A DNA stretch of 47,899 nt, filler included, from Stramenopiles sp. TOSAG23-2 (Eukaryota), in the NCBI GenBank assembly GCA_900128395.1. It is 2 parts of 2 records of this genome, joined end to end, with 100 filler letters (N's around TTAATTAATTAA, not from the genome) between each part and the next. Parts side by side here need not be neighbours in the genome. Positions count along the whole stretch, not along the records: positions 1 to 23,916 come from LT649476.1; 1 more part is not named here. One strand, 5' to 3'. This document shows positions 1,876 through 43,456 of the stretch, in pieces; the first letter of the stretch is position 1; each line of letters begins with the position of its first letter. The notes beneath the pieces were generated by a model. It worked only from the letters and a program-made list of their open reading frames with translations, ran no database searches and had not been told where the DNA came from. The translations under genes were made by a program, and so were the position numbers.

Positions 1876-4134
1876 TTATTTATTCTTGTTCTTCTCATGT
1901 TCCTCTGCAATTGTATATAAACGTAAACATACCGTGATCAATGCAACTAATTCAAACAATTCAAACGTAACAGCATTTCCAAACATGAAAATAAAAATAA
2001 ATAAAAATCCTAATAAATTACTACCAAGCGTTGAAATCATTTTACTACTTATAATATCAAGCGCTAATGATGCACATGTATTTATCCAAAGGAAACGGAT
2101 GATGGTACCATTAATAAATCCACCTTGAAACAAAGATGTATTTACACCACGTTCCCAACAACCATTGATCGGTCGTAACAATGGAATGGCGATGTCAAAC
2201 CATACCCAACAGCTACATAACATTATAAAATAAGTACCAAAACGATATAAAAAATATGTTTCCGGGCCGACACTGAAACATCTTGTACCCGATGAATGAA
2301 TCCTAAACACATTGTAATCATTGTATTTCTGATTTTGAAGAAAATCTTTACCCATTTTACAATTCACACCACTACTAAAATGATCCGATACAACCATATC
2401 AGGTGCCATTTGACTTTCTGTTTGAACACCTATTGCAGAACGTAAAGTTGTTTCCCAATTTTCATATTCATCCGTAGCAATTTTACCATCATCTGGTAAA
2501 ACCCAACGATACACAATAAAACGTAATAAATTTTTCTCTTCATAAACAATTTGCATCATCCCTTCCTTTCGTTTTTCTTCCATTTCCTTACGATTTGAAT
2601 CCGTTGCGATACCAATACCATTACATAAATCTTTGAAAAATGTATTGTAAATTTCATATACAATTTCCGTTGGTTCAGATAATACAGATTGTTGATTAAA
2701 TATATCTTTCAATGTTGCAAAACGCATTTTCCATTTTGATACAAATCCAACGGATGGTTGCTCTGGATTAAACCATGAGGTTGCACTAGGTTTTTGTAAT
2801 ATCCCAGTTTTACTATGTATAAACCAACTAAAATACGTTCGTTTTATTCCATATCCAAGTAGATTAATCAAACATATTTTTGCACGTATGGTGAAAACAC
2901 AGAAACAAAGTATTAAAAAAAAGATTACATATAAAAGCCAATACCAAAAATGTGATTTTAAAGAATATCCAAATGTTACGGTACATACACTTTCACGTAA
3001 TATTGGTCCATATCCTAAATATTCAAATGATTTGATTGAAAGTTTCAAACCGGATATCCAAAACAATAATAATAAATAAACAATTTTTACTACTTGTGGT
3101 ATTGGCATAGGAAATTTAAATATTGTATAAACTGGCAATGGTCGACGATCATGATCTTGACCTTTTGCTTCATGTGTACATACATATAAAAAATCCTTCT
3201 TGTTCTTCTTACTAGTAGTAGTAGTAGTAGAAGATAATGTTGTTGCAGTATCATTTAAAATTGGACAACGAGATAATAATGCTTGATTTAATAATACAAT
3301 TTCACCATCTTGATTCATTAAATAAAATGCTTTTGATTTGTCTGTACGTTTACTTAAACCACCTGATTTCGATTTAAATGGTTTACATAAATTACGTATA
3401 CATCGATCTACTTCATTTACCATTTTGCTACCATTCTTACTATCATAATGAAATTCAATCTGTTCATTACGATTTTTTGGTGGTCCTTGCAATGTTTGAA
3501 AATTATAACCATTTCGATAACAGATATATCCTGGACCACAACGATAAGAATATTGGGGAAAACGTAAATTCAATACACGGACATCAAGCTCGTCGGCGTT
3601 GTTGACGGATGTTACACCACGTAATAAATTCATACGTTCATCATCTGGCATAGAATCTATTCTTGGTTGAAAACTTTCATGTGAACAAATGAAATATACA
3701 CCATTTGTATCTTCGGTATATTTCAATGTACGTGATAATAAATCGATATCATTCGGTTGAGTTGGGTTGCCAAATTTAGAAGCAACAATCCTCTGGAATA
3801 CACCGTTCCATCTCATCTCATCATCTTCATTTTTATCGTATACGATACCGTCCACCAAGGAAGGTAAACGACGTTCACAAAAAAAATTTAATGCCGCCAT
3901 TTCTGCATTACCTAAGGAAACATCAAGTTCATTAAGTTGTTGTATCACACGCTCAACAAGGTCTCGTTTAATTTTTATGTTATAATCTGTCGTTTCTTCT
4001 ACTGCTGCAGTAGTAGAAATAGTAGTAGTAGTACTTGTTGTTGTCGTCGTCGCTGCGATGTTTTCATCATCATGATCATCTTCTTCATCACTACTTGATT
4101 TTTTTTTACGTGGTTTGGATTTAGATCGTGGCAT
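1876..4134 (-). CDS. Hypothetical multi-pass membrane protein (~752 aa)
   Basis: Long ORF (track start 4278; MPRSKSK at 4134 looks the likelier start). Hydrophobic helices in the middle and C-terminal parts. Ends KNKNK, which fits a KxKxx ER-retrieval pattern. Confidence 0.75.
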   Translation of the reverse strand: MPRSKSKPRKKKSSSDEEDDHDDENIAATTTTTSTTTTISTTAAVEETTDYNIKIKRDLVERVIQQLNELDVSLGNAEMAALNFFCERRLPSLVDGIVYDKNEDDEMRWNGVFQRIVASKFGNPTQPNDIDLLSRTLKYTEDTNGVYFICSHESFQPRIDSMPDDERMNLLRGVTSVNNADELDVRVLNLRFPQYSYRCGPGYICYRNGYNFQTLQGPPKNRNEQIEFHYDSKNGSKMVNEVDRCIRNLCKPFKSKSGGLSKRTDKSKAFYLMNQDGEIVLLNQALLSRCPILNDTATTLSSTTTTTSKKNKKDFLYVCTHEAKGQDHDRRPLPVYTIFKFPMPIPQVVKIVYLLLLFWISGLKLSIKSFEYLGYGPILRESVCTVTFGYSLKSHFWYWLLYVIFFLILCFCVFTIRAKICLINLLGYGIKRTYFSWFIHSKTGILQKPSATSWFNPEQPSVGFVSKWKMRFATLKDIFNQQSVLSEPTEIVYEIYNTFFKDLCNGIGIATDSNRKEMEEKRKEGMMQIVYEEKNLLRFIVYRWVLPDDGKIATDEYENWETTLRSAIGVQTESQMAPDMVVSDHFSSGVNCKMGKDFLQNQKYNDYNVFRIHSSGTRCFSVGPETYFLYRFGTYFIMLCSCWVWFDIAIPLLRPINGCWERGVNTSLFQGGFINGTIIRFLWINTCASLALDIISSKMISTLGSNLLGFLFIFIFMFGNAVTFELFELVALITVCLRLYTIAEEHEKNKNK

Positions 4135-5950
4135 ATTATTATTGTTGTCTTTCGTAGTATTGGAATTTGTATAAATTGATGTTAATAAATGATTTTTTAT
4201 TTTTGTTTGTTTTTGTTTTAAAACTTTTTCTAATTCTCTTTTCTTATTCGGCGTAATATGTACTTGTATCCAGGACATATGTATCTATCTATAGTTTCAA
4301 ACTCTCTCTATGTCTATTTGTCTGCACTAATCGTCGTCATATATATATACAGACGACACTTGTTTCACTATTTTCAATAGTGTTCCACACCCTTTCATAT
4401 TGATATATAATATTTATTTTTTTTTGAGAGAAGTGGGAGAGATGTGGATAAGTTGATAGGATAAAGTTGTACTTAAAGGTAATTAGACTACAACTTGAAA
4501 AAAAAACCAAAAAATGGTAAAGAAGTTAGTTATAATAGTGATATATAGTTATATAGCTTTTACTTTCGGGTAGGTAAGAATTGGAAAAAAAATAGAACTA
4601 AATACCATTGTGATTTGTTGTGGGAAATTGATTTCTATAGCTAGGAATATCCGATTTTTAAATTTTATAGATAGCTAATACTTAAGATATCGTATGTTCG
4701 TGTACATATTGTCGATGGTAGATGGTAGATATACAATGTATATTAGTATTTAATTAGTAATCATGTGTACATAGAGTTATAGTTTGTATTATGATGTAAT
4801 TATTTTCTAGAATAATTCCATTCTGAATGGTTTGGATAAAATTGGAAATAACGTCATTTATTCAGCACTTTTATTAGATTTATTAGTTATCTTATTTTCA
4901 TTTCAAAAATTTTTGATAACACTCCTGCTGAGCTGCTGAGATTGTATGAGAGACGAGATATAGGGCATACTTCCTGTATTATATACTATGCCACGTTTAA
5001 GTACGTAATATTATAAATAATCGCCGCTGCTGTGTAAAAACAACTATTTCTATAACTTTTTTGTTTTAATCAACTTGTGCACTTGTACGAGGAAAGGTAC
5101 TTGAAAGGAAATATTACATGGGAATAGCATTAGGCATCGTTTTCTACATCCAAATCTATGCACCATATATCTTGAAGGGAATTTGAAAATTATTAGGTTT
5201 TTTTTCATCTCAAAATTTCAGCTATGGGAATTAACATGGACATAGCATTACATGTGGTGCGAGTCTGAAAAATCGTTATTTTCGATTCTCAATTTGAATC
5301 TTTTTTACCTGCTATCTCCATGCTAAATTCCCAAATACCAAATTTGACACCACACTGCCATTTGGTGAAGTGCAATATACTTCGCTTGATTGAATTTAAG
5401 GGTTTACAATATTCAAATTATACAAAATCCACACACACAGATTTCTTTAATTTATACTTAAACGGATGATAAGAATACTAAAATGTTAAAATGCAGTATG
5501 ATAGGAATATTATTCCAATACTTATACTAATACACCCGATTTCAGTATATATATATTAACCCTAACACCAACATCAAGTACAAAAAATACCTAATATATC
5601 CTATCAAATATATCAAATACTACAAATCTACTTAGTATATGAAAAGTACTATATTAAGTATAAATATGATAGGAAATGAAAAACAGAAAATGCTACACGC
5701 ACCATGACAGACAGTATTTCAATTCCCCTTAAAAATGATTTCTTCCTCAAGAACTGGTCGAACAACACACTTTACAAAAACATATATATATCGATATACT
5801 AAGCGACCTGTGGAAGAGTCGTATAGAAAGAAGGTTTGAGAATCAATTGTAGACAAGTTTGAACTTACATAAAATAGTTTATACATAATACGTAAACGTT
5901 TATATAACAACAACAAAAAAACAGACAAACACAACAAGAAAAATTTCATT

Positions 5951-8900
5951 ATGGCTACGTAAGTAAATCTATCTATCTATATATATTGAATTCTACATTT
6001 TTATTTTAATAGATTAAATATATTTTGAAATATATATATATATACATTCAAGTGTGTATGATAATTGTGAAAAAAAAACCAAGATATATTTATACATATT
6101 ATCTTATATATACGACAACATTCATCGAAACATTTACAAATCCATATCTATCCTTCTATCACAAATATAATCATACAAATATAACTAACATATATAATTT
6201 TTTATATACACACGCACACCTCATCTATCTATATACGTATTAAAAAAATTATCAAAAATTGACAACGAATTCATAAATTATGCACAACATATTATACAAC
6301 AGCAATACATTCTTTTCAGTTGATGCTGAAAATGGTGAAAATACCAATGAAAATTTATGGACGGTTAAACAACCAAAAATGCCTGCACATTTAGCTGAAC
6401 GTTCTGCTAATTTGAGGGAAAAATTCTATTCATATGATAAAGAACAACGTAATAAACAAGCATTTGAAAATCGTGAAAATAATTTAAAAGCGATACAAGG
6501 CAAAGCTAAACAATTCATTGCAAAAGCTGAAGCAGTGAAAACACGTAAAGCACAAATATTAGGTGAAAATAACCAAACAACGTTTACACAGGATGGTTCT
6601 CCATTCAAAATGCGTGGTAATTTAGCAGAGAAAGCAAGTCAAGATGTTGTAGATCATCAAAAGAGTACGTCACCAGTAAACGTTGCTTCAAACTTGGAAG
6701 CTAAATTTGCTTCGTTTGAAACCAACCGTACGGAACAAATGAACGAAAAAGTTTCCTTCGCTGCACGTGACATGGCAAAAGTTGACGGCGTTAAAAAACG
6801 CAAGGCACAATTGCAAGCGCAACAATTGTTAACGCAAGGCTTTGCCAATGAAGGCGATACGAAAGGGGAACAATCACAAGGATGGGGTTCACCAATGAAA
6901 TTACCAACACGTTTAGCAGCACGTGCAGAAGCATTACAACAACGTTTCAAATATTCACCAACAAATATGCAACAAAAAGCAGAGGCAAACCGTAAAGCAT
7001 TTTTAAATGGTATTCGTGCAAAAGCACATAAAGTATCCGAACGTCGTGAAGTTGTATTTGCAAGAAAAGCAGCAATGACGCAAGAAAATGCAGGCATGTA
7101 CACCGTATTTGCACAAGACGAAAACGATTCTGTCGTGCCAAATGCTGGATGGAACCAACGAGCAAAATTACCAGCAAATTTAAGAAAAAGATATCATACA
7201 TTGAGACGTAAATTTGCATATGATCCTGCACAACGCGTAGCAAATGCAGAAAAAAATCGTGAAGCACAATTGATGGACGTACGCATCAAAGCACGTGATT
7301 TCTCTAGCAAAGCACAACAAGCACGTGATAGGAAAGCATTGAAAGAAGGAAATGAATTTACCTTTTCCTTTAGTGCAGATCCAGATAACAACGATGCGGA
7401 GCAAGGTTGGGGTGTTCAAAATGTAAAATTGCCAAAAGCATTGAAAATGCGATGTGAAAATTTACAACAACAATTTAAAAAAGAACCATTCGCAGTACGT
7501 GATGCAGAAGCAAAAGCACGAAGAGAACAATTTTACAGTGAAATCAGTGCAAAAGCACGTACATTCAGTGGTGCACCAATGGGCGTAAATGCATATTCCA
7601 TCTCATTCAATAAAAAAGACGATGATTTCGTAGAGACGCAAACTGGTTGGACCGATTCACAAATTGTTATGCCAACTGCATTGAAAGCACGTTGCAATAA
7701 ATTAAATGCACAATTCAAACCAAAACCACATGCAGAGAGACAACAAGTAGCAGATACAAACCGCGCTCAATTCATGGCTGAACGTGTAGCAAAAGGACGC
7801 GCAGTTAGTTTCAAAGTGGATAGTGCCAAAGCAAAACGTGGAATGATGCAAGCTGCTGGATTTTTCAATGTAAATGCAACAGATGCGAACGATAACAATT
7901 CAAATGCTGGATGGGGTGTTCGCACACGTTTACCAAAACGTTTAGCACAGCGCAACAATAAATTGCAACAACAATTTAAAAAAGCACCATATGCAGAACG
8001 AGAAGCAGAAGCAAATGCAAGGCGTGAAATGTTTTACGATACAGTAGCAAATACAGCGCGTTCCACGCGCTCCAAAGGGTTAGGCAATAAAAACATGTAT
8101 TCCGTCGTCCCAGCGGATGAGGAAGAGTTTAAAATGAAACAAGCAAATGGATGGGGCAAAGCAGTCATGATGCCAAAACGTTTAAAAGAGCGTGTTGCAT
8201 TTTTAAATGCCAAATTTAACAATCGCCAACCATATGAAGTACGTAGACAACAAGCATTCTATAATCGTCAAGCGTTTAATGAACATACTAAGCAATTTGC
8301 AAACTTAAATGCTATGAAAGCAGTTAATGCAGCAGAACGTCGTAGTGAATTCGAGGACAACATGGTCATCTTTAGCAACGCACAGCCTGTAGCTATGCCA
8401 ACTAAATTAGCAGAACGAGCCAATTTCTTACAAGCCAAGTTTAAGAAAAAAAATACATACGAGGAAAGGCGTTTTAATGCCTCCATGAACCGTGGCAAAT
8501 TCAATTTGGAAAAGTCAAAAATGGCAGCATCCTTCAGCAACCGAACAAACACTGTACAAGCACAAAAAGAAGCATTTGCTGTGAACATGTCGTTGATCAA
8601 TGTGAACGGCCCAGTAGACTCCCCAGTGAAAATGCCAAAAAGGTTGCAAAAACGCGTTGTAGATTTACATGAAAAATTTTCATACGACCCATTCAAACGT
8701 GCACAGCATGTAGAGGCAAACCGCCAATCACGTTTAGCAATGATCCGCGCAAAAGCAGCACGCCAAAAGACACGTGCAGCAGCTGCAGCAGCACGCCGTG
8801 CACAAGGTGCCGGTACCGTAGTAGAAGAATCTAACGAAGTGTCAACGAATGATGTTAAATTAGAAACTGTTAAAAGTCAAAGTGTCGCAAAAACTAACAA

Positions 8901-8955
8901 TAGTGGTGAAAATGTATGTTCCAAAGTAAGAAAGAAAACATGTAACATTCAATAA
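5951..8955 (+). CDS. Helical repeat protein, ~10 stathmin/TCP11-N-like units, C-terminal CaaX (CNIQ); exons 5951-5958 and 6303-8955
   Basis: ATGGCTAC|gtaagt at 5951-5964 and cag|C at 6300-6303 splice in frame to MATNTFFSV. Repeated [ML]PxxLxxRxxxLxxxF...A..[NR]R...KA units. Ends CSKVRKKTCNIQ*. Confidence 0.85.
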
Positions 8956-9617: not shown

Positions 9618-11384
9618 TTACATCTCTCTTTCATGTGGTGCTAAATATTCTAAATGTAGAAATTCAAATAATTCTTCTTCACTATTAAAATCAGGCCGTC
9701 CATTGATACCATCCGCTTGAACTATTTCGACATGTTTCGTACCACTCATTTTAATCCTTGCAATCATTTTATTATTAATTTTCCATTCAATACGATTGAC
9801 TGGATTTTTTGCTTTAAATCGATTCTTGTCAGAACTACTTGTACCTATATTATTCTTTGTTTTATTAATGTTCTTTTCCATCATCTCAGTAAATTCACCA
9901 TCAACATATGTTCGTAATGATCTTTCAAACATGGTTGTTCCTGTCCAACCAAGAATAGCAAATATCCAATGTCTCGGTGGTACAATTACAAAATCAACAC
10001 GACGATATTTACTAGTCGGCGTTTCTTTAATAACTGATAATTGTATTGAATGTTTTTCCTCTCGTGTCTCTGGTAATGAATCATGGTTAGCAAAACTACC
10101 ACTATGATTCTTCAATATTTCAATAAAATGAAAATGTTGTCTCAGTTCATTTAATAATTTATCTCCAATATCCATTACATCAAAATTACGACAAGAAATA
10201 CTTGATGATGCAGATAAACTTTCATCTAATGTAAACAATAAATCTAAATCATGTCCAAGTTTTTTACGACGACGTGTACCACCACAAATTTCCATTTTTA
10301 AATTGAATTTTTCTTTTGCTATGTTTCTAATATTTTCTGCAAATGAATGTCTCTCGTATAGACTATAATTAATTTGTAAATCGTCATAATACTTGAGTGA
10401 ATTTTCCAATGTTTCCTTCAATGTTGTTTCATTATTGATTGGACCAGTTGAATTGAATACATCATATTTTAATTCTTTAATAGTACGATAACCTAACGAA
10501 TATAAAACACTTGCATTGCTGCTACCAATATTATGAATTTTAACAAATTCTAAACATGAAGTTGCTTTTGGATTGGTTTTTAGTGCGTTTAACCTTTGAA
10601 ATGATCCACTTTCTAAAATTTGAAAAATAAAATTTTGATATGTTTTACCAATATAATTAATATTTTTCAATAGATCTATATTTTGAAATGAAATTTGCAT
10701 AGGTAAACCACGTAAGACACTTAACACACGTGGGAGCGTAAATTCTTGAATCCTTTGTTCTTGAGTTTTATAAGCTTTGGTTAATTTATAATATTCCTCA
10801 AATGCTGATATTATATGTTTATTTTTTTCTGCAGTTTCAATTGTAGTTGCAACTTTGCAACATAAAGATGGATACGAATATGTAGTAGTTGTCGTGGTGC
10901 TTGTTTTATGTCGCTTATTGTCTTTTATTGCTGTTGTTGTTGTTGGTATTGGTCTTTTATTGCTGCTGTTGTTGTTGTCATTGGTATTATTATTATTATT
11001 ATTATTATTATTACTACTACTGTTATTGTTATTATTATTATTATTCACAATTATATCATTAGATTCAAACGTTTTCTGCAATTTCAACTTTTCAAAACTT
11101 TCTTCTGTCATTGGTATTATTTTTATTTTATTACTATTTGATTCAATAAGTTGTTGGCAATTTATAGATGACAATTTCTTCATGATTGCCTCATAATTTA
11201 ATGTCGATTCAGTGAGAATTATAATCTCGTTGTATTTTTTGATTTTTTTTTCTAATTTTTTTACATTTACACTATTATCTACAATATAAGTTTTAATTGC
11301 ACGTTTCATTAAAATTTGTTGATACGTAGAAATTTTTTTATGTGTAAAATTTTTACCATAATGTAATATAAGGACTACCCTCAT
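9618..11384 (-). CDS. X-family DNA polymerase, Pol mu/TdT-type motifs
   Basis: HhH motifs (NYIGK, HNIGSSNA), CGGTRR..LGHDLD (GHDLD at 10242-10256), RRVDF, FAILGWTGTTMFERSLR (GWTG at 9939-9950), C-terminal SEEELFEFLHLEYLAPHER. Likely start MRVVL at 11384. A degenerate N-terminal BRCT is possible. Confidence 0.92.
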   Translation of the reverse strand: MRVVLILHYGKNFTHKKISTYQQILMKRAIKTYIVDNSVNVKKLEKKIKKYNEIIILTESTLNYEAIMKKLSSINCQQLIESNSNKIKIIPMTEESFEKLKLQKTFESNDIIVNNNNNNNNSSSNNNNNNNNNTNDNNNSSNKRPIPTTTTAIKDNKRHKTSTTTTTTYSYPSLCCKVATTIETAEKNKHIISAFEEYYKLTKAYKTQEQRIQEFTLPRVLSVLRGLPMQISFQNIDLLKNINYIGKTYQNFIFQILESGSFQRLNALKTNPKATSCLEFVKIHNIGSSNASVLYSLGYRTIKELKYDVFNSTGPINNETTLKETLENSLKYYDDLQINYSLYERHSFAENIRNIAKEKFNLKMEICGGTRRRKKLGHDLDLLFTLDESLSASSSISCRNFDVMDIGDKLLNELRQHFHFIEILKNHSGSFANHDSLPETREEKHSIQLSVIKETPTSKYRRVDFVIVPPRHWIFAILGWTGTTMFERSLRTYVDGEFTEMMEKNINKTKNNIGTSSSDKNRFKAKNPVNRIEWKINNKMIARIKMSGTKHVEIVQADGINGRPDFNSEEELFEFLHLEYLAPHEREM

Positions 11385-12073
11385 TTGATGTGTATTAATA
11401 AATAAATGATATAGGATGGATATATGTTTAGATATTGTTTTTTGTTTTGTTTGTTGTAAAAATGTTTTGCGTTTCTTCTGTGTTATAGTGAAATACATTT
11501 TGATGATATATGTATAGCCTAGCAAATTTGCGGAATTTGAGATTAGAGATTTAACCTTTTAGTCCCTGCTGTGTCTATACTATTTTTTTCGGATTAGAGC
11601 TTTTTCAAGCAAGCCTTAGCAAGCACATAGCATTGTGTCTTTTCGGCTCTAATATTCACCAAAATCCAGATTGAAAGGACAAAATTTGCGTTCCGCACAT
11701 CATGCAAATAATACATCAACAAAAAAACATCATAGATTGTTACAATCCTTATTTTCTATTTTATATATAATATTTTATAAAATTTCCGAAAAAAATATTT
11801 TCACGACACAACATAAAGAATATTACCATAGACACAGCATTACAATCGGGATGTTTTGTAAGAATCCAAATTCCGCAAAATTACCCGAGTCTTATACGTC
11901 GCTACGCTCCTTGCAAAGGAGTGTAGCAAGACGTAGAAGACGAGACACCATTAGTGTGAAGGGACCGAGTAATATATGTATATGTAAATAGTGAAGAAAT
12001 TTCTATTTATTTATTATTTATTATTGATGTATATATGATAGGGATATTGTAGTTGGTAGTATATAAATATATA

Positions 12074-14139
12074 TTAATAATCATCTCCAGTGAATATCGT
12101 CATCCCTTCCACTTGTTGATACCCGTTTGATCCATCTCTTTTATATTGTTTTATAGCATTTAATTGTGATTTCATATTATCACTAAGTTGATTATCAGCT
12201 AGGTACAAGTACTTTAATGTCTGGTTTATTTTTAATCCATCAATAATACTTTGTATTCCACCATCATCAGTAATATTATTATTATATAGGTGCAATTCCT
12301 CTAATGTCTTGTTTGTTTTTAACGCTTCACCTATACTTTGTACATCAGTAATATTATTATTGTCTAGGTACAATGTAGGTACAATGTCTTTAATGTATTG
12401 TTTGTTTTTAATCCTTCACCAATACTTTGTACATCAGTAATATTATTATTTTCTAGGTTCAAGGACGATAATGTATTGTTTGTTTTTAACAATTCACCAA
12501 TAGCTAATGCATCCTCATCCGTGAGATTCTTATCATCCAAATCCACTTCCGTCTTCCCATCAAATTCTTTTTCCCATTTAATACATGCAGCACTCTTTTT
12601 TATATTATTAACCACCACTTCTTCTCCCTCCTCCTCCTCCTCCTCCTCATCTTCCAACGATTCTTGTCGTTTCCGTTCCGCTTCCAAACGACGTTTTTCT
12701 CCTTCTTCTTCTTTCTTCTTTCTTTTCCTTTTCTCCTCCCCCTCTTCCTCCTTCTTCTCCCTTTTCTTACGTTTTCTTTCCTCCTCCTCTTCCTTATCTT
12801 TTTCCTTTAAACGTTTTTCATTCTTATCTAACATTTGTTGTTTCATTTGTTCTTCCATTTCTTTCATTTTTCGTTCCATTTGTTCTTGAATTCTGTCTAG
12901 CTTATCATCAATATTTTTTTGCCCTTCCTTTAAATCATTTTGCCCGTCTTTTATATCATTGAAGCCTTCCTGTAATGCTTGTAAAAACTCACCATCACGA
13001 TGACTATTTTCTAAATTTTCTAACACTTCTTTTATATGTTTCAACGTACGCTGATCATTTTGATCTTTTAAATCAAATTTATTGTTAAAGTTTTGCAAAC
13101 TATTTAACATCTCACTCATTTGATTTAAACTATGCGGAGATATATTGTTATGACCATTATTTTGTAAATTATTTAAATTATTCATAACTTGTTTAATAGC
13201 ATTTGTCTGCCCATTTTCAAGTTGTTTGATTTGTTCATTCATCATTTGGAAGGCTATGCCAACATCATCCAATTTACTTTCAATATTACGTTGTCCTTTT
13301 TTTAAATCATTGAAGCCTTCCGTTACAATAGTTAAAAATTCATTATTATCATGTTTTTCTTTCAATTCATCAAGTACATCTTGAATATGAAATAATGTAC
13401 GTTTTGTTTTACGACTTTTTAAATTAAAATTATTATTTAATTCATCTAAATTTCCCAAAATATCTACTAATTTATTGGAACCATCCGGTGATATTTGATT
13501 ATTATCTTGAATTTCTTGCAACATATTTTTAAGTTCATTAAAATTAGTTTCATTTCCATTCCATGCTTTTTCCAAACGTGTTTCAATTGTCTCGAAAGAT
13601 TTTTTAATTGTATTATCCATTTCATTTAATTTATCATGTATTTCTACTATAAATTTAGTATCTTCCAATACTTTATTATTACTATTTAATATTTCAATAC
13701 TTAAACCAGTTTGTACTAATTTCATTGCTTCAACGATTTCACTATCAATGGATTCGTATTTTTTTTTAAATTTTTTAGCACCCCATAAACGACGTACTTT
13801 ACCTAAACCAATGTATTTTTCACACGCTTTATGAAGATCTTCCAAAGCTTCAGCCAAATCATTTAAACCATCTTCTTGGCCTTTTGATATTTTACCATTT
13901 CGTTGATATGCTTGTGCACATTCAGTAAGAATTGATAAAAGAGCATGACAACGTTTAGATATTTTTTTACAATTCTCTTTGTTTTTTTTAGAGGTACGAC
14001 TGGCTGCGGTTGTAATATCATAAATTTGTTTACATGTTTTAGCAACGGAGACGACAGTTCCTACAACTGGTATTGCTGTAGCAATAGTTGTAATTGTAGC
14101 AACAGCAACATTAACTGCTTCAAGTACCATTTCCGTCAT
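12074..14139 (-). pseudogene. MLKL-NTD-like four-helix bundle + coiled coil + RI-type LRR protein, frameshifted by an 11-bp duplication (real lesion or assembly error)
   Basis: N-terminus IPVVG...KNKENCKKISKRC...L..L...C..Y....KVRRLW...KF fits the MLKL/RPW8/MCAfunc-type 4HB pattern. 26-aa LRRs LKTNxTLxxLxLxNNNITD. TAGGTACAATG is tandemly duplicated at 12365-12386; removing one copy joins ORFs 12364..14139 and 12074..12373. Confidence 0.75.
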
Positions 14140-21282: not shown

Positions 21283-23364
21283 ATGACAACAATTGCAACA
21301 AATGATATTGATATAAAATTAGCAGAAACAAATATCAACGACGATGAAGCTGATACTATGAATAATCCAACCACCAACACCACTATTAAACAGAAAGATA
21401 TGAATATTACTAATAATGATAAAAATAGTATTGTTGCTACTGACGGAAAAAAAAAGGAAAAAGAAAAAAAAGTAGCAAGAAGTACATTAATTGCTGCGTA
21501 TAGACAAGAATGTCAAAAGAAATATGCTGCATTAACAAATGATAAAGATGCAGTTGAGAAATTGAATACAGAATTAAGAAGATTATTCCCATTATATAAG
21601 GAAGTAGATGAAAAAATGCGTTTAAGATCTGTTAATTTATTTGATATGGAATTTGAAACATTAAAACCTTTTATTGAATTTAGGATTTTACAACAAGTTA
21701 TGCAAGAATTATCTGAAATTCGTATAAATACATCTAAAAAACCAGATAAAATGATTGAACGAAGTAAGAAAATTACTGCATATACAGAAGAATGCCAACG
21801 AAAATATTTTGGATGGATCGATAAACCAAATGCAGCTAAAAAATTAAATACTGAAGGACAAAAACTCATGCCACGTTACATGGAAGTACATGAAAAAATG
21901 CGTAAACGAAATTTAAGTATGTCGGAATTAGATTTTGAAAGTTTAAAACCGTTGATAGCATATAGATATTTGCAACAAGCTATGAAGGAATTTACCGCAG
22001 ATGCTATCAGAGGCAGTAGTAAAGGTCGACGTGTAGCACATGGTGGTCGTTCACGTGGTGGTCTTCAATCATGTTCATGTTGTGGTCCACCTACAAATGC
22101 TCGTGGGGCATCAGGCCGTCCATCCTCTAATGGTCCTCCCAAACCAAGACCAATGCCACCACCGTATCCTCCACCAGGAAATGGGAAAAAAATACCAAAT
22201 ATGGTTGTCGGTAATAATAACGAGAAAAGAATATCATTTGAAAAAGATATTGAAAGTTTCGATGTGACGAAAAGAGATAATGTTATTAATTTTCTAAAAT
22301 GGGCAAAAAAATGGTTAGAATCTGATGAATTGCAAAATGAGATTCAATTAAAATGCAAAGATAAAGAAAAGAAAGAGAAAGAACGTATTATTTATGACAT
22401 GTTTGAAGAAGGTTATAATAAAGAATGGATCAAATCAGTTGAAAAAAATTTAAATATTGAAAAAGGAAATGCGGAAAATCGTTTAATGTTTGCCTATGAG
22501 AAATACGTTAGTCGTGGAAAAAAAGATTATTTTTATTATTTAATACAAAAATTATATAAAGCATTTCAAAAAGCGGAAGATGGCTGTTTTCATATTGGTG
22601 TATATGGATCCGATATATTTGAAAAAAAACAAATACGGGATAAAAAAATACGTGAATATAGGAAAGAAGCACAAGAAAAATATATTAATTATTTAAATGA
22701 AAACGATGATGAAGGTGATGATATTGATCGATTAAATGATGAATTTATGAGATTGGTACCAATTTATAGGGATTTACGTGAAAAAATTAGAAGTGGAAAA
22801 ATAGATCCTGCAGAGATGGATTTTGAAACCATAAAACCAATGATTGAATTTCAAGCACTTGAACGGATCATGGATTTATTAGTCAATGATCAAGAAGATA
22901 ATAATGATGATTATTATATGAATCAAAGTTATAATACTACCCATGCAAGACCAGCAAATCAAGCAGAATGTTATGATCCATGTTGTCAACCATTAATGCC
23001 AACAACAGTTGGAGGAAAGAAAAAACCAGCAAAACCGAAAACGTTTAAACGAAAGATTCAAACGAAAAGAAATAATATTTCACAACGTAGTGCGATTAAT
23101 GCAAAACTTGCTGCTTCCACTACTAATACAACTAATGAAAATAGTAATGGTACAAATAATAAAAAAAATACAACAACAGGTATGTACAACTCTTTTTTTT
23201 TTGTCCCCAATTTTTTGCTTATATATATATTGTTCGACCTCACATTAATTATATACCCCCATGTCAAACATACACATTACTAACATTTTTTTATGAAAAA
23301 TATTTATCGATTATTATTATTAGGAGGTGGAGCAGATGATTTATTAAATATGTTTATGAGTTAA
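21283..23364 (+). CDS. Hypothetical protein with three copies of an unrecognised ~75-aa domain; exons 21283-23179 and 23324-23364
   Basis: Long ORF. Intron gtatgt (23180)...actaac...ttag (23323) gives an in-frame C-terminus GGGADDLLNMFMS*. Internal repeat Y..E[CA]Q.KY...LN.E...L.P.Y....EK.R.......[ML][DE]FE..KP.I. Confidence 0.85.
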
Positions 23365-25420: not shown

Positions 25421-26941
25421 ATGAACCATTCAAACAACACCACCACCACCATCCTCCTCCTCCTCTTAACCATCCTCACCACCACCACCACCACAACCTA
25501 TGCATCCCTCACACTCCCAATCTACCGCACCGTTTCCTATCGTAACCACAAAAAATTCGAAACAAATTCAAAATACGACATACATGACGGTCCAATTATC
25601 CAACTTGGTACAACATTTTATCGATATGCTATGGCATATACAAAATGTCCATTACGTGGATATGGTTTCAACGAAACAAAACATAAAATGTTTGCTACGT
25701 TTGTTGAATCAATGACAGTATTTGGTGTTGGTTCTGGATTTGATTGTTCACAAATTGTATTAGGGACATTAGTTGGTGCTACTGGTACGTGGGGTGAAGA
25801 TTGTGGGTTTAAAACACCACATTTAGGACAAACTGTGAATATTTATAAATCAACTGATTTAACAAATTGGAAATATGTTGCAGATGCATTTACTGGTGGG
25901 CCAGATTGGTTAGTCAAAGATTCGATTATTTTTCGCCCAGCTATTGTTTATAATAAACAAAGTAAGAAATATGTCTTATGGTTAAATCGTTTACCACGTT
26001 TAAAAGATCAATTAGTTGTGAAATCATATGAAATTGCTGGTTTTGTAGTTGGTACGTCAAATTCACCAGAAGGTCCTTTTACATTTGAATCAAAGGAAGA
26101 AAATGCTATGGTACAAATGGAACATGATGGTGGTGCTGATTTTGCAATATTACAAGATGATGATTATGATGGCAATAATAATGGCAAGCAGAACAAAGCA
26201 TATATTATATATGGCGCATGGCATCATTATGGTATGGATAAATCAGATTGGAGATATGATTATTATGCTGATTGGGCAAAAGATGGACATCAAATTGCAA
26301 TACAAGAATTAGATATGGAAACATTTACAAAACCAATTGGACCAAGTATACGTATAACAACGGAAGGGCAAGAAAGTCCAAGTATATTTAAACGTAATGG
26401 TGTTTATTATGCAATACATGGTAATTTATGTTGTTTTTGTGAACGTGGTTCAGATGCAAAAGTATTAGCATCACGACATCCATTAGGACCATATAAATAT
26501 ATTACAAATTTAAATAATATTAAACCAGATAAAGATCATATTAAAGCACAAAGTAGTGGTATTATATCTGTACAAGAATACGATGGTACGATGAAATATA
26601 TATGGACAGGTGATCAATGGTTTAGTGCTAAAAATGGTATGAAAGGTAATGATCATCAATATTTTCAACCGTTAAAATTTAAAAAAGCAATGGATGGTAG
26701 TGGAATTGATATACCATATCGTGATCCATTATGGAAAGATTGTTTTGAATTGAAATTGAAGCCATCATCAGATGTTGGTGATGATAAAAAGGACAGTTAT
26801 TGCAAGGGTGGAAAAATAGCACGTGTTGCATATGATCAAGAAGTATTAGCAAAATTATGGGAGGAACAAGAAGAGAAGAAGAAGAAGAAGAACAAAGACC
26901 CTCGCGACTACACCAGAGCAACCAACACTCTCCACACTTGA
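25421..26941 (+). CDS. Secreted glycoside hydrolase family 43 (GH43_24-like beta-propeller); extreme 3' end suspect
   Basis: Signal-peptide-like N-terminus. IHDG, YKSTDLTNWKY, FRPAIVYN...YVLW, GADFAILQDDD, ESPSIFKRNGVYY, CCFC, AQ, WTGDQW and QYFQPL motifs. Confidence 0.85.
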   Translation: MNHSNNTTTTILLLLLTILTTTTTTTYASLTLPIYRTVSYRNHKKFETNSKYDIHDGPIIQLGTTFYRYAMAYTKCPLRGYGFNETKHKMFATFVESMTVFGVGSGFDCSQIVLGTLVGATGTWGEDCGFKTPHLGQTVNIYKSTDLTNWKYVADAFTGGPDWLVKDSIIFRPAIVYNKQSKKYVLWLNRLPRLKDQLVVKSYEIAGFVVGTSNSPEGPFTFESKEENAMVQMEHDGGADFAILQDDDYDGNNNGKQNKAYIIYGAWHHYGMDKSDWRYDYYADWAKDGHQIAIQELDMETFTKPIGPSIRITTEGQESPSIFKRNGVYYAIHGNLCCFCERGSDAKVLASRHPLGPYKYITNLNNIKPDKDHIKAQSSGIISVQEYDGTMKYIWTGDQWFSAKNGMKGNDHQYFQPLKFKKAMDGSGIDIPYRDPLWKDCFELKLKPSSDVGDDKKDSYCKGGKIARVAYDQEVLAKLWEEQEEKKKKKNKDPRDYTRATNTLHT

Positions 26942-38037: not shown

Positions 38038-41000
38038 ATGTCGTCTACTACTACTACTACCACTACAACATTAAAACAAGCTGCATTAAAACCAACAACA
38101 ATGGATAGTATCGATTCAGATAATACATTATTAATCAATATGATGAAAAAAATATATACATATTTACAAGAACAAGATATTACCGATAATAATAATAAAA
38201 ATAATAAAATTATTGCTACAACATCTTTATTACAAAATGCATTTAAACATGTATTTAAAACACAAGAAGAATTAAATAGTTTAGTCAAATTTACATTTGA
38301 ATGTCGTTTTGGTTGGTCGGAACGAAAAGCAACAACTACAACAAACGACGACCCGTTCAATCACGGCACGTTAGAAACATCCATGTCTGAATCACAAAAT
38401 TCAACATCTATTAATGATAAAGACGGTTCATTAGCTAGTAATCGTAAAAGAAAATTAAATATAAATGCAGATAAAATGATTAAAATGTTTCGTGAAATTC
38501 AACCAAGTACACGTATTTTAAATGCTATACAATATTGTGTATTAAATACAAGCAAACCTGTTGTACGAAAACAAGTCTTTATCCATTTTTACGATTGGTT
38601 TAAAAGTTGGGTTAGTAAAATGTATATGGAATTAGGAAAGTTAAATATATATAGTGATAGTGATTATCAAATCATGCGTAATATTATCATATCAAGTGTG
38701 ACTGATATTTGGAGTGCTATTCGTAAAAATGCAGCTGTACGTTTATATAGTGTCGTAGATTTATTTCCAATACATCATGTTGAATTATTGTTTCAAGGTT
38801 TAGTTAATATATGCATTGATAATTATATTAAAGGAGAAACTGAACAAGCAACGATAGCAGATGATGACGATGTTGGGGTAACAACAATAAAAAATAAAAC
38901 ACAAAAAAGTCCATGGCAAGCAAAAGAAGGTGCATTATTAGGTATTACAGCAATAGTGAAAAAATTTAGACGTGTACAAACACCATCTAATTCACCATTA
39001 CAAAGTAAATATTTAAATAAAACAATTATTAGTAATAAAAAGAAAAGTAAGAAGAACAACAATAATAATAGTGGTAACGACGACGACAACAACAACAACA
39101 ATTTCCCAACAACAACAACAAATGATGATAATAATAACAACAATAAATCATTGAAAAAGAAAAAGAAACCAAAAGGTTCACCATTATCACTTCAATTGAA
39201 TAATTTATCATTTTTAAGTACAAATACATTTGATGATTCAAATCCACCATTAAGTCCAACTGGTACACGTCAAAGTTTTAATATGGTAACACCAGTTGCT
39301 AATAGACATAATTCGTTTTTTAATGCGATGGAAGAGGGCACTGATACTAGCAGTAAGGATGATAAAAATAAAACAACATCAACAAATGCATTACAAACAC
39401 CAAAACGTAATAATAATAGTGATAAAAAAGATAACAATAATAATAATGATATTAAAACAACCGCCACCACACCAACAACAAATAACAACAATGCAAATGC
39501 AATTAATCGAGCATTAAATAACAGCTCACCATCATCACATGCAACATTGACATTTGGTAAAGATTTTATATGTATTGGTGGATTGCCTGATTTTATTGAA
39601 ACGGAAATGCAACGTGTTACGTATGAAAATTTAGGACATCCACAATTAACTGTACGTGAAAATGCAACAAAAGCATTTGCTGCATTTTTATCACGTAGTC
39701 CATCACGTCAAACATTAAATGCATTTAGTGATGTAATTGGAAAATTAGCAAAAGAAACGGAAGGGAAAACAATTGAAAATAGTAGTAACGATGGAAAAAA
39801 TCGTACACAGCGTACTACACATACAATACCAGATCCATATTTAGCAGAAGGTCTTTTATCATTATGTGTCATCTTAGCAAAATTACGTATGGTACCTGAA
39901 TATTATTTAAAAACAAATTGGAATCATATTTTCACTACATTAAATAAATATTTAGGACATACAGCAAGTACGGTTCGTCAAATGAGTTCTACCGTGTTTA
40001 AACATTTAGCATTTAAAGGTTCTCGTTCATGGTCACATACTAGTGATATTGCACAACAATCACCAGCATTATTATTATTAGTATTAGAAGGTTTAGTGAA
40101 AACATGGAAAGTAGATCGTGAATTAGTAAACGAAAGTAATAATAAAGTGCAAGTTATAAATGAATTAGCAGGTGATGATTTTGATGACGATTTTGATGAT
40201 GATGAAGACGAAGACGAAGAGATGCAATTATCATGGCAATCACGCGAAGGACGATTATTAACGTATGAATTAGTGATTGATTATGTATTATCAAATCATG
40301 CAAATTATATAGCAACCGATCCAAGTAGAAAAATATATCGACGTATTAGTAGTCCACCAAGTATTGGTGGAAACATTAACCGTTCACCAGTTGTTGTTAT
40401 TGGTGAAAATGTGATAAATCGTAGCAAAACATCTGATATTGCTGGTGGTACAACGGGGAATAATAGTACTACGGCGGAAAAACAACCACCAAAAACACCT
40501 GTACGTGAAAGTCCAAAAGATAATAGTAGTTCCAACAACAACAATCCATTATTTGCATCACCAGCACCATCGTTGCCATCTCCTTCACCATCACCAAGTG
40601 CAAATCCATGGAATTCACCACCAAAGAAAAAATCATCGACACAACAACATGGACGTAGTAATTCCTTGCATTTGAATACCGGTAATAGTGGTAAGAACAC
40701 AACTAGCAAACGTTCACCATTACGTATTGAACATATTTCTACTAGTAGTAGTACAAATAGTAGTCCAAGTAATACACCAACTAGTGCAGATGGTTTATTA
40801 ACGAATAGTAATCGTAAACTACGTAATGAACCAAAATCATTATTAATGTTTTTCATGGAAGCTAGTAATTTGAATAAAAAAAATCGAAATACTACTACAA
40901 TAACTGATACTAAAACATCAGCATCCAATACAGATATTCAACATTATTTGCATCATATGATATTGCAAACAAAAGAATGTTTAATGGATGATCGATTTGA

Positions 41001-43456
41001 ATTGACTAGAATGGCAGATCAAGTATTGCCTGGTTTAGTAAAATTATTATGTTGGATCGATGTGAATATTTTAGGAAAACATTGGTTATCGTTAGGCAAT
41101 AGTATGCGTGATAAAGATGCATTAACATGTCGTTTTATTTCCAGTTCGTTATTAGTAGCAATTAAATATTTCATTTCTTTACGTTATATGTTAAATGCAA
41201 GACAAAAAAGTGGTAATAGTAGAAGTCGACCAAATAGTCCAAGTGGAAATAGTCCAATGAGTAAAGGTGTTAGTACCAATAATAATAACACTGCTGCAGT
41301 ATTGAATCGAAGTCCAACTGGTACTATTGGTACAGGTTCTAGTGACAAAAATAAAGGAAAAAGTGGTACAAAAAATACTAGTAATAATATGACGACACCA
41401 CCACCGCAATCCTCCACAACCGTCACCACGCCATCATCGTCGTACACACCATTTACGGTTGTTTTTAAAACAAAATCAACGACACAAGCATCAAAACAAG
41501 CATCTATATTACAATCTATTTTATGTGATATTTTGCCAATGTTTCAACGTTTAGCAAATAGAGCGGTGACGGAAAAATTATTTGCAAGTACGATTGAAGG
41601 AATGGTTATTTTACATTCATTATTTGTAAATAAGAATGATAAAAAGAATTACGATGATAAAAAAATGATGAATGAGCAATTTGTTGCATTGGATTTACGA
41701 ATTCCAGTCAGTGAAGCGGAAAGTATTAAACATGCAACGATTATTGTCAATCGTGTAGTACGAATACATACCATTGCACATCCAAAACATCCACAACGAG
41801 CGCAAACGGCACATAATCGTATGGTAGCAATGGCAGCAAAGGAAAAACGTGCACAGCAATTAGATAATGCAGCAGCTGATGCATTGTCGATTCATATTCC
41901 AGGATTTTTCAATCGCATGGCAAATAGTACAGGTTGCATGGATCAAGTATTTAAATTAGTACCAATCGTGTTACGATGGGCATGTAGTCGTGATACGATC
42001 GATGCGAAGTGTAAGTAGTTGTAATAATATGGAGTTTTGAATTTTCTGTTGTTCCTTTTTATATTTTCCATCATTCTTTTTAATATTTTTAAACATACAT
42101 TTCTAACATTTTATATATGTTTCACACATTATATGTAAAACAGGCTCTTTACTACATGCTGTTGTAGATAGTATTAACAAAATTAAACATTATATTGTTG
42201 ATACGGAAACAAGACGCAAGGAAAAATTAGATGAAAAAGTTCAAGGTGGGGATACAATTGATGATTTTGATGATGATTTTGATGAAGAAAACTTTGATTT
42301 AGAAGATGATGATTGTGTTTCCGTGATAAAACCAGAGCAAATTGAAAAAGTTTGTTTATTATCGATTGCACCGTTGGAGAAATTATTAGGTACAAGTGCA
42401 GAAGCAAGTGTATTGAAGAGTGCTTTGCAAGTTACATTAGCATTAACAATGCTGGGACGAGTAGATATTGGTAGTACGAATGATAAAAGTCTTGGCGATA
42501 GCATTGGTTCGAAAAAGAAAAATGTAAATGCAGGCAGCAATAGCAATAATAATAATAATAATAAAAATGCTACTGCAAATTCCAATACTACCAATAGTAA
42601 CAACAAACAACGTGTAAATAAATCTAGTAATTTATTAAGTCGATTGTTACCAGTAATAGCAGAACGATTAAGACAAGTTGCACCACGCAGTGTTCGTATT
42701 TCACGGAGTGCATCGATGTTATTCCGCGGTGAGCAAAGTATAAAATTGCAATTAATGTCAAATGAAATTGTAGATGATTCTCACGGGAATGATGATTCTC
42801 AACATTTAGATAGTAGTACGGAAGATGATGGTGGTGATACTACAGATGGTGGCAATAATAATAATAATAATAATAATAATGCAACTATCAAACGTCTAAA
42901 TGGTGGTAATTTACGAATAAATATTAGCAATAAAAATAGTGCTAGTGGTTTAATTGATGAAAACGATATTGATGTTGAAAATGAGACTGTAGAAGAAAAC
43001 GAAGCAACATTTAATCAAGATGTACGAACAAATTTACGTGAACGTAGTCCAAGTAGTGGTAGTAGTAATAATGGAATTTCCATGTTTGATGATGATGATA
43101 GTAGCGATAATGATGATTGGGATGATTGGGATGATGAAGCTGGTGGTGATACTGGCAATGAAGCGTTGAGTAATGAATTAGGATGGTTTGTCCATCGTTT
43201 ACATCTTGGTTTAGGAGGTGGTTTGAATGATCCGTTGAGTAGTGGTGGTGATGATGGTGGATTTTTAGGAATGGATCTTGCATCGAATGATGATCAAAAA
43301 AATCGTGTATTAGAAAATTTAACGTTGTCAAATGATGGTGTTGTTGGTGTTGGTGATGATGGCGAAGATGATGATGGATTGCATGGTTTAGGATTTGTTA
43401 GTGGACGTGATATGGAAGTATTGCAATGGAGTTTGCAGATTTATAATTTGAAGTGA
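38038..43456 (+). CDS. Large HEAT/ARM-repeat protein (~1761 aa); exons 38038-42010 and 42144-43456
   Basis: HEAT-like segments (WSAIRKNAA, PWQAKEGALLGI, HPQLTVRENATKAF, HTASTVRQMS, WQSREGRLL) between S/N/T-rich linkers. Intron gtaagt (42011)...ttctaac...cag (42143) joins ORF 42323..43456 in frame. Confidence 0.85.

Follow-up and report, generated by a model that had tools for sequence, protein, structure and literature searches.

An unannotated ten-unit tandem-repeat protein with a predicted lipid anchor in Stramenopiles sp. TOSAG23-2

INTRODUCTION

Stathmins are small, acidic proteins, and the family (PF00836) has a single domain with two half-repeats, in which a strand-like segment precedes a long charged helix and no stable fold is kept without a partner. 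A stathmin binds two alpha/beta-tubulin dimers, and engineered "R" scaffolds of the family accommodate one to four tubulins. According to Deng et al. (2024; PMC11238091), stathmins are nearly confined to opisthokonts, the exceptions being two homologues in ciliates, and are not reported from Chlamydomonas; STMN2-4 and STMND1 are presented as N-terminally lipidated tubulin binders. The subject of the present work is a gene at positions 5951 to 8955 (+) of a 47,899-nucleotide stretch, filler included, of the Stramenopiles sp. TOSAG23-2 assembly GCA_900128395.1 (here, the window), which encodes a protein of ten tandem units ending in a predicted membrane-anchor signal. An earlier note, made from the DNA of the window alone, had singled out the repeats and proposed a tubulin-binding protein resembling stathmin and plant TCP11-domain proteins.

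Among protists, the trypanosome MARPs are tandem-repeat linkers between microtubules and membrane, or repeat microtubule-associated proteins. The protein described here is like these linkers in being basic, in being built of many tandem units, in its proposed course along a protofilament, and in a role that would likewise tie microtubules to the membrane; it differs in having units of 75 to 97 amino acids (aa) with a strand-Trp-LPxxLxxR-helix pattern, and this comparison is one of descriptions only. Its likeness to stathmins lies in the order of strand-like segment and long charged helix and in the apparent want of a stable fold without a partner. The same source (PMC11238091) places a lipid anchor beside the tubulin-binding part in some stathmins, which is a further likeness, and the opisthokont distribution that it gives sets stathmins apart from this stramenopile protein of 886 aa and isoelectric point (pI) 10.2. 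The predicted anchor is a C-terminal CaaX box in the window protein versus N-terminal acylation in the lipid-anchored stathmins, and ten units stand against the one stathmin domain.

The protein belongs to an unannotated protist family, and the lipid-anchored tandem-repeat linker is already known as a kind of protein. It is tentatively interpreted here as a membrane-tethered protein that may bind a periodic acidic polymer through its ten units.

RESULTS

Gene structure, expression, and selection

The gene is real, spliced, expressed in the sea, and under purifying selection. Exon 1 (5951..5958, +) consists of an ATG and 5 further bases, which encode M-A and supply the first two bases of T3, as given by RNA contigs and by the start of the protein P0002. 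It is followed by an intron of 344 nt with GT..AG borders (5959..6302, +), placed by the RNA-contig joint 5958>6303, and by exon 2 (6303..8955, +), which includes the TAA stop (8953-8955) and was delimited from the open frame, the RNA contigs, and the joined coding sequence (CDS). The open frame in which the gene was found in the genomic DNA spans 6280..8955 (+). The joined CDS is 2661 nt long, and its translation of 886 aa runs from MATNTFFSVDAE to TCNIQ and the stop. P0002, a public protein with 100% identity, likewise has 886 aa and starts with MATNTFF. Because that start is not obtainable from the unspliced genomic frame, and because the RNA joint links 5958 to 6303, the gene has two exons. 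The true product is a protein of 886 aa from these two exons and not that of the 891-aa genomic frame.

The GT..AG joint skipping 344 nt was present in RNA contigs from all three marine metatranscriptome runs examined (three studies), one of which was polyA selected, and was absent from a contig of a DNA run that was collinear with the window. At least half of the sampled gene words were present in 20 of 24 listed sequencing runs. Twelve of the runs with gene words are registered as RNA, and 11 studies contributed such runs. The 12 listed sites at which RNA contigs depart from the window sequence, which fall between 6579 and 8802, are transitions throughout and probably represent strain variation. 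The ratio of nonsynonymous to synonymous substitution rates (dN/dS) was 0.083 at a dS of 0.94 for the window gene and L002, an orthologue with 87% identity; synonymous sites were saturated in two more distant orthologue pairs. The orthologues have 883 to 886 aa and share 55 to 87% identity with the window protein.

Ten tandem units

A motif scan of the protein recovered ten anchors of the [ML]PxxLxx[RK] type at a spacing of 75 to 97 residues. When the ten units were compared by Smith-Waterman alignment with 100 shuffles each, unit pairs were similar beyond chance, with z>3 in 38 of 45 pairs, z>5 in 33 of 45, and a median z of 8.4. A 42-unit profile (A7) gave exactly ten domains across the six window frames, all of them in this frame; nine window units were included in the profile, so that their matches arise by construction, and unit 2 was excluded. 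Three rows were left out of A7, namely, the degenerate window unit 2, P0014, which is close to P0017, and P0063, which looks frameshifted; each other protein was represented by the single unit scoring best against the A1 profile. In all, about 575 units were found.

Within a unit, an alternating aromatic/hydrophobic strand-like segment is followed by an acidic loop, a Trp, a short helix with the pattern LPxxLxxRxxxLxxxF, a Pro loop, and, at the end, a long basic helix in which one Arg is nearly invariant. L31, L38, F42, and R58 were invariant in the ten-unit alignment, and P28, R34, and A69 were conserved at 90% or more. All seven Trp residues of the protein, one each in units 1 and 3 to 8, precede the anchor Pro by 7 to 8 residues, with the contexts GWG (four times), then GWN, GWT, and LWT; units 2, 9, and 10 have no Trp. 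Motif scan, shuffles, and profile agree on ten tandem units with aromatic strand, acidic loop, Trp, anchor motif, and basic helix, as the earlier note had described them. The locus and the count of about ten units also stand as first given, with the limits 6376-8800 replaced by an actual span of 6304-8808. No tandem repeat of unit length was visible in the DNA, for which Tandem Repeats Finder returned only 5 short rows with periods of 2 to 15, and the duplication is thus old.

All units lie on the plus strand. Unit 1 (6304..6531, aa 4-79) contains the strand NTFFSV, an LW, and the anchor MPAHLAER and scored 72.0 bits. Unit 2 (6532..6822, aa 80-176) is degenerate, with MRGNL in place of [ML]PxxL/LPxxL and an inserted segment; its similarity to the other units was weak (z, -0.2 to 4.2), and it scored 17.1 bits (i-E 1e-4) with the profile from which it had been excluded. 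The unit 2 insertion (...HQKsTSPVNVASNLEA...) was almost invariant across seven orthologues and may be a separate binding site. Units 3 (6823..7089, aa 177-265; 76.6 bits) and 4 (7090..7350, aa 266-352; 76.3 bits) follow, the helix of unit 4 being the one that the earlier note likened to stathmin. The next are unit 5 (7351..7590, aa 353-432), which was used for structure prediction, unit 6 (7591..7851, aa 433-519), and unit 7 (7852..8091, aa 520-599). In unit 8 (8092..8316, aa 600-674), the strand and acidic segment YSvVPADEEEFKM was almost invariant across seven orthologues. Units 9 (8317..8553, aa 675-753) and 10 (8554..8808, aa 754-838) complete the series, the latter with a nearly invariant strand, NMSLINVNGPVDSPVK.

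Predicted structure, charge, and conservation

The full-length AlphaFold2 (AF2) model had a mean predicted local distance difference test score (pLDDT) of 50.9 and a predicted template modeling score (pTM) of 0.19 and contained helices only, two per unit. A unit model (unit 5, with 42 diverse sequences) had a mean pLDDT of 79.4, with helices at residues 29-41 and 47-73 (13 and 27 residues, separated by a Pro loop) predicted at pLDDT >90 and the first 28 residues unstructured. Foldseek returned 0 matches to the unit model. Long-helix rows of a wider structural search (Z<=3.7) included a ciliary doublet chain, microtubule-bound MAP7, and Rib43a along with numerous unrelated coiled coils; these rows were given no weight. 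As modeled, the protein is without a globular fold of its own.

The protein contains 161 K+R versus 94 D+E, which corresponds to a net charge of about +67. Charge is unevenly distributed within units, from +3 to +12 in the helical parts and from -4 to +2 in the strand/loop parts. No membrane-spanning stretch was found in the protein (maximum KD(19), 0.75). Across seven full-length orthologues, 48% of columns were invariant in the 26 residues before the anchors versus 43% in the helices, and only the tail (aa 839-886) was lower, at 23% versus 43 to 48% elsewhere. The segments that are disordered in the models are thus as conserved as the helices, which would be expected of segments that fold on a partner.

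A predicted C-terminal membrane anchor

Downstream of unit 10, a poorly conserved spacer (8809..8916, +; aa 839-874; AF2 pLDDT <50) leads to a putative membrane-anchor signal, CSKVRKKTCNIQ (8917..8952, +), which was missing from the list of features in the earlier note. The signal comprises Cys875, a basic cluster, and the CaaX box Cys883-Asn-Ile-Gln, directly followed by TAA, so that the second Cys stands eight residues before the CaaX Cys. A CaaX box terminates every complete orthologue, together with an upstream basic cluster and a second Cys. A Cxxx ending was found in 54 of 150 family members that match the profile, and in 53 of these another Cys lies 5 to 10 residues upstream; one of the 54 is a fragment with an odd tail. 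Thirteen distinct CaaX-type tails were found, including CNIQ, CSIQ, CAIM, CIVM, CVVM, CVIM, CTIC, CIIC, CTVC, and CVIA, and the listed tails have K/R between the two Cys.

Under the rules of CaaX processing, an X of Q, M, C, or A points to farnesylation, and a basic cluster close to a Cys serves as a second, Ras-type membrane signal, typical of plasma-membrane targeting. Because X is Q, M, C, or A in the CaaX boxes of all relatives, farnesylation is inferred, and the C-terminus is predicted to be a farnesyl/palmitoyl membrane anchor. The likeness to Ras/Rho-type signals covers the Cys four residues from the end, the identity of X, the basic cluster, and the upstream Cys. The difference is that the predicted signal is carried here by a 100-kDa repeat protein and not by a small GTPase.

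Relatives of the protein

A search of 1.84 billion cluster representatives with the ten-unit profile gave 62 matches at E<=1e-3, 32 at E<=1e-10, and 14 at E<=1e-30; P0068, among the weakest of these, looks unrelated. A wider profile run against a 5.8-billion database matched P0044 (3e-94) and P0069 (4.9e-22), and no Pfam domain was found in any of its 15 matches. One of 65 relatives scanned contained a GBP domain. A word-index search with the three-unit proteins (A5) recovered known family members only.

Family proteins contain 1 to 14 units and occur in several forms. Members of the Trp/CaaX form have 7 to 12 units. Members with a PET[DN] C-terminus have 948 to 1160 aa and 12 to 14 units, without Trp or CaaX, and include a hypothetical protein of the thraustochytrid Hondaea fermentalgiana. 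Eight units were found in P0035 and P0038, three units in proteins of 231 to 277 aa, and a single unit only in P0050, P0053, P0061, P0065, and P0066 (101 to 120 aa), which are the simplest objects for a binding assay. In the PET[DN] relatives (P0027, P0032, P0033, P0044, and P0127), two unit types alternate, one ending in ...RF and the other containing RRPTxEAILRK and ending in N.IDF. These relatives also share an N-terminal KPGTPTKR motif, which looks like a proline-directed kinase site.

Organism names among the relatives were those of a EukProt MAST-4 protein and Hondaea, both stramenopiles, and of the MMETSP transcript P0141. The taxon field of P0141 is probably wrong and was not used, since its id (87120) resolves to a basidiomycete, a poor fit to a marine protist transcriptome. 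An orthologue with 55% identity to the window protein shares its 90%-identity cluster with the MAST-4 protein. The window therefore most likely derives from MAST-4 or a close relative; a budding yeast or an amoeba, suggested at first by AT-richness, an intron directly behind the start codon, and poly-Asn tracts, was rejected as the source on this ground. No functional name occurred among the relatives, Pfam was essentially silent, and no paper was found, in agreement with the description of the protein as undescribed in the earlier note. In the literature, no paper joined "stathmin-like" with "stramenopile," none carried the accessions of the Hondaea relative, and no relevant paper linked stathmin with plant TCP11.

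Comparison with stathmin and TCP11

Neither Stathmin nor Tcp11 was matched by the window protein in Pfam at E<=10, where the only matches were GP68 (0.049) and MscS_TM (0.11), and neither was matched by any of the ten units. In PDB searches at the same threshold, neither the whole protein, which matched nothing, nor the ten-unit profile nor unit 4 retrieved a stathmin chain. The ten-unit profile matched only CDK5RAP3 and augmin-7 (E of about 1), and unit 4 matched a fibrinogen coiled coil (0.69 to 0.8) and augmin subunit 7 (1.1). The augmin subunit 7 chain 9nba_G, which is microtubule associated, was met twice at an E of about 1 (ten-unit profile and unit 4), over the LPxxL helix and the next loop, which is at noise level. 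The stathmin resemblance that had been read into the protein and its unit helix accordingly found no counterpart in either database.

Stathmin-like chains appeared with two profiles of the wider family. The first PDB match of a profile of six long relatives was the stathmin-4 chain 9f07_C (E 0.082, 14 bits). The 42-unit profile had four PDB matches, the first of them 4f6r_C, "Stathmin-like domain R1" (E 0.26), and the second 9f07_C (E 0.58); profile positions 35-82 were aligned with residues 35-84 of the stathmin-like chain. Matches to Pfam Stathmin below its cutoff of 24.7 bits were found for P0030 (E 0.0011) and P0069 (E 0.005, covering profile positions 32-133 of 136), both of them firm family members (E 8.4e-16 and E 4.9e-22, respectively). 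In a language-model search (Atlas) with units 4-5, the first named cluster had Stathmin on 49% of its members at a score of 0.82; Atlas scores were 0.81 to 0.85 (0.81 to 0.82 for Stathmin clusters), which is below the 0.9 line, and are leads only. Taken together, the long-helix pattern appears stathmin-repeat-like somewhat more often than chance would suggest, and homology is not established.

In the AF2 model, the unit helix is broken by a Pro loop and preceded by an unstructured strand segment, unlike the single continuous helix of stathmin, which is internally duplicated and preceded by an N-terminal hairpin; a monomer model is not decisive for a fold that may depend on a partner. Stathmins are small and the window protein is not, but single-unit relatives of 101 to 120 aa exist. 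For TCP11 (PF05794), the sole likeness is an LPxRL...RRxxFY pattern of plant N-termini cited in the earlier note, and this plant motif lies outside the Pfam Tcp11 model. At the level of the Pfam domain the likeness was not borne out, since Tcp11 was absent from the protein and its ten units, from the 25 families listed for 65 relatives, and from the matches of 10 more.

Surroundings of the gene

The window has a G+C content of about 30%, long open frames, and eukaryotic gene content, and it holds 88 N. Neighbors of the repeat-protein gene in the window include a polymerase-lambda-like gene, an IPP transferase, CPSF100, and an RBBP4-type WD40 protein. The frame at 9618-11525 (-) is that of a family-X DNA polymerase-like protein with polymerase beta thumb and lambda fingers domains and long poly-Asn/Ser/Thr tracts. 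Five long open frames of 591 to 1326 aa had no Pfam match at E<=1e-5, namely, 1876-4278 (-), 12364-14139 (-), 21283-23283 (+), 38038-42018 (+), and 44138-46489 (+). A glycoside hydrolase family 43 frame at 25421-26941 (+; E 2e-12) adjoins housekeeping genes and fits a polysaccharide-digesting grazer.

DISCUSSION

The explanation favored here, which we hold tentatively and as possible rather than probable, is that the protein, tethered to a membrane, binds a periodic acidic polymer in a multivalent manner, the likeliest such polymer being the microtubule. A protein without a fold of its own, built of ten equal modules with constrained "disordered" parts and provided with a lipid anchor, suggests a membrane-tethered multivalent adaptor, and the basic helices suggest an acidic surface on the partner. 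The farnesylated C-terminus, with the basic cluster and the palmitoylatable Cys, would place the protein on a membrane, and the ten modules would lie along and fold upon the periodic partner, one module per partner repeat. The strand/Trp segments would make the specific contacts, and the basic helices would run along the partner surface. The partner would most likely be tubulin in a microtubule protofilament, such that the protein might link microtubules of the cortex, roots, or flagella to the membrane of a tiny flagellate over about ten tubulin dimers.

Tubulin binding by the modules is a proposal, and homology to stathmin is not required for a microtubule linker. The protofilament is regarded as the best candidate because the cell is a flagellate with microtubular roots, because a helix-loop-helix of about 45 to 60 residues corresponds by our own estimate to about one tubulin dimer, because stathmin is the only family named by the weak signals, and because lipid-anchored tubulin binders exist (PMC11238091).

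Several points weigh against binding of microtubules at the membrane. Prenylation is a prediction from sequence only, and so basic a protein would adhere to acidic lipids or nucleic acids as well. The wider structural search produced only tied generic long-helix rows (best Z, 3.7; none at Z>=5). No Pfam Stathmin match at E<=1 was found in 72 of 74 distinct relatives (65 plus 9), and no stathmin was found in PDB at E<=10 for three of five profiles (A1, A5, and A6) or for three sequences (P0001, P0030, and unit 4); A5 and A6 each had one unrelated match (E 0.96 and 2.9), and P0030 had none. The stathmin chains that were matched in PDB are engineered short constructs and not native chains, and the signals are at noise level, with fibrinogen, augmin-7, CDK5RAP3, ARP8, and Ask1 at E 0.7 to 1.7.

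Somewhat more doubtful, but close to hand, is a membrane-skeleton or coat protein that functions independently of tubulin, as an extended scaffold that the lipid anchor and the basic helices would keep flat against the acidic inner leaflet or against some other partner in the cortex. The conserved CaaX box with its basic cluster and second Cys would suit such a protein, as would the concentration of the net charge of about +67 in the helices, the lack of a fold of its own, and the lack of significant similarity to any tubulin binder. Electrostatic binding to lipid leaves unexplained, however, why the acidic/aromatic strand/Trp segments are as conserved as the helices and why the distance from Trp to Pro is fixed at 7 to 8 residues. 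Furthermore, the PET[DN] relatives, with 12 to 14 units, have no CaaX box, which argues that the job of the module is independent of the membrane anchor.

An extension of the microtubule proposal, which we consider unlikely, is that stramenopiles employ, in proteins of 1 to 14 units, an ancient tubulin-binding module with a distant relationship to the stathmin repeat and that the window protein is a lipid-anchored "ten-tubulin ruler," which would line up dimers or follow a protofilament under the membrane. Slightly less likely still is a true multiplied stathmin homologue, with a stathmin-like tubulin-binding repeat in each unit, which would sequester up to about ten curved tubulin dimers and thereby hold back the assembly of microtubules close to the membrane. 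The latter draws on the stathmin-like chains at the top of the PDB matches of two family profiles, the Pfam Stathmin matches of P0030 and P0069, and the Stathmin annotation of the top named Atlas cluster. None of these signals rises above threshold, though, and the window protein and all ten of its units are without a match at E<=10, as are nearly all relatives at the stricter cutoff given above. The predicted splitting of the unit helix into 13 and 27 residues by the Pro loop is a further difference, and a basic protein of 886 aa contrasts with the small, acidic stathmins. The almost exclusively opisthokont range of published stathmins, with two ciliate exceptions (PMC11238091), also speaks against a homologue in a stramenopile.

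A farnesylated nuclear-envelope, chromatin, or RNA-binding protein, held like a lamin at the inner nuclear membrane and binding nucleic acid through its basic helical repeats, is improbable. The pI of 10.2 and the many K/R clusters would fit such a protein, and the CAIM and CIVM tails resemble lamin-type endings; against this, a second Cys with a basic cluster is typical of signals for the plasma membrane, no nucleic-acid-binding domain was found by Pfam in the protein or its units, and the models contain neither the coiled-coil rod nor the Ig fold of lamins. Least probable is a GW-repeat "Ago hook" protein, in which Trp residues in acidic disordered surroundings bind Argonaute, for although the seven Trp stand beside G, N, or T after an acidic stretch in segments that are unstructured in AF2, they keep a fixed register before the anchor Pro within strongly conserved surroundings, GW is entirely absent from the PET[DN] subfamily, Ago hooks are fast evolving and not in register, and known GW proteins do not feature a membrane anchor.

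MAST-4 and its relatives are uncultured marine bacterivorous flagellates and are among the most abundant grazers of bacteria in the surface ocean. The gene described here is transcribed in many marine metatranscriptomes and strongly conserved, and it belongs to a family without annotation. If the "ten-tubulin ruler" is true, the protein would be a natural counterpart of engineered multi-tubulin stathmin scaffolds, and the origin of stathmin-like binders would shift from the opisthokonts toward the root of the eukaryotes. Should the modules prove not to bind tubulin, the family would remain a clear example of a conserved module that probably folds only on its partner, which would then merit identification. 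If, as favored here, the modules do bind tubulin, the family would represent a new class of microtubule-membrane linkers or tubulin buffers in a major eukaryotic group and would bear on the origin of stathmin-like tubulin binders.

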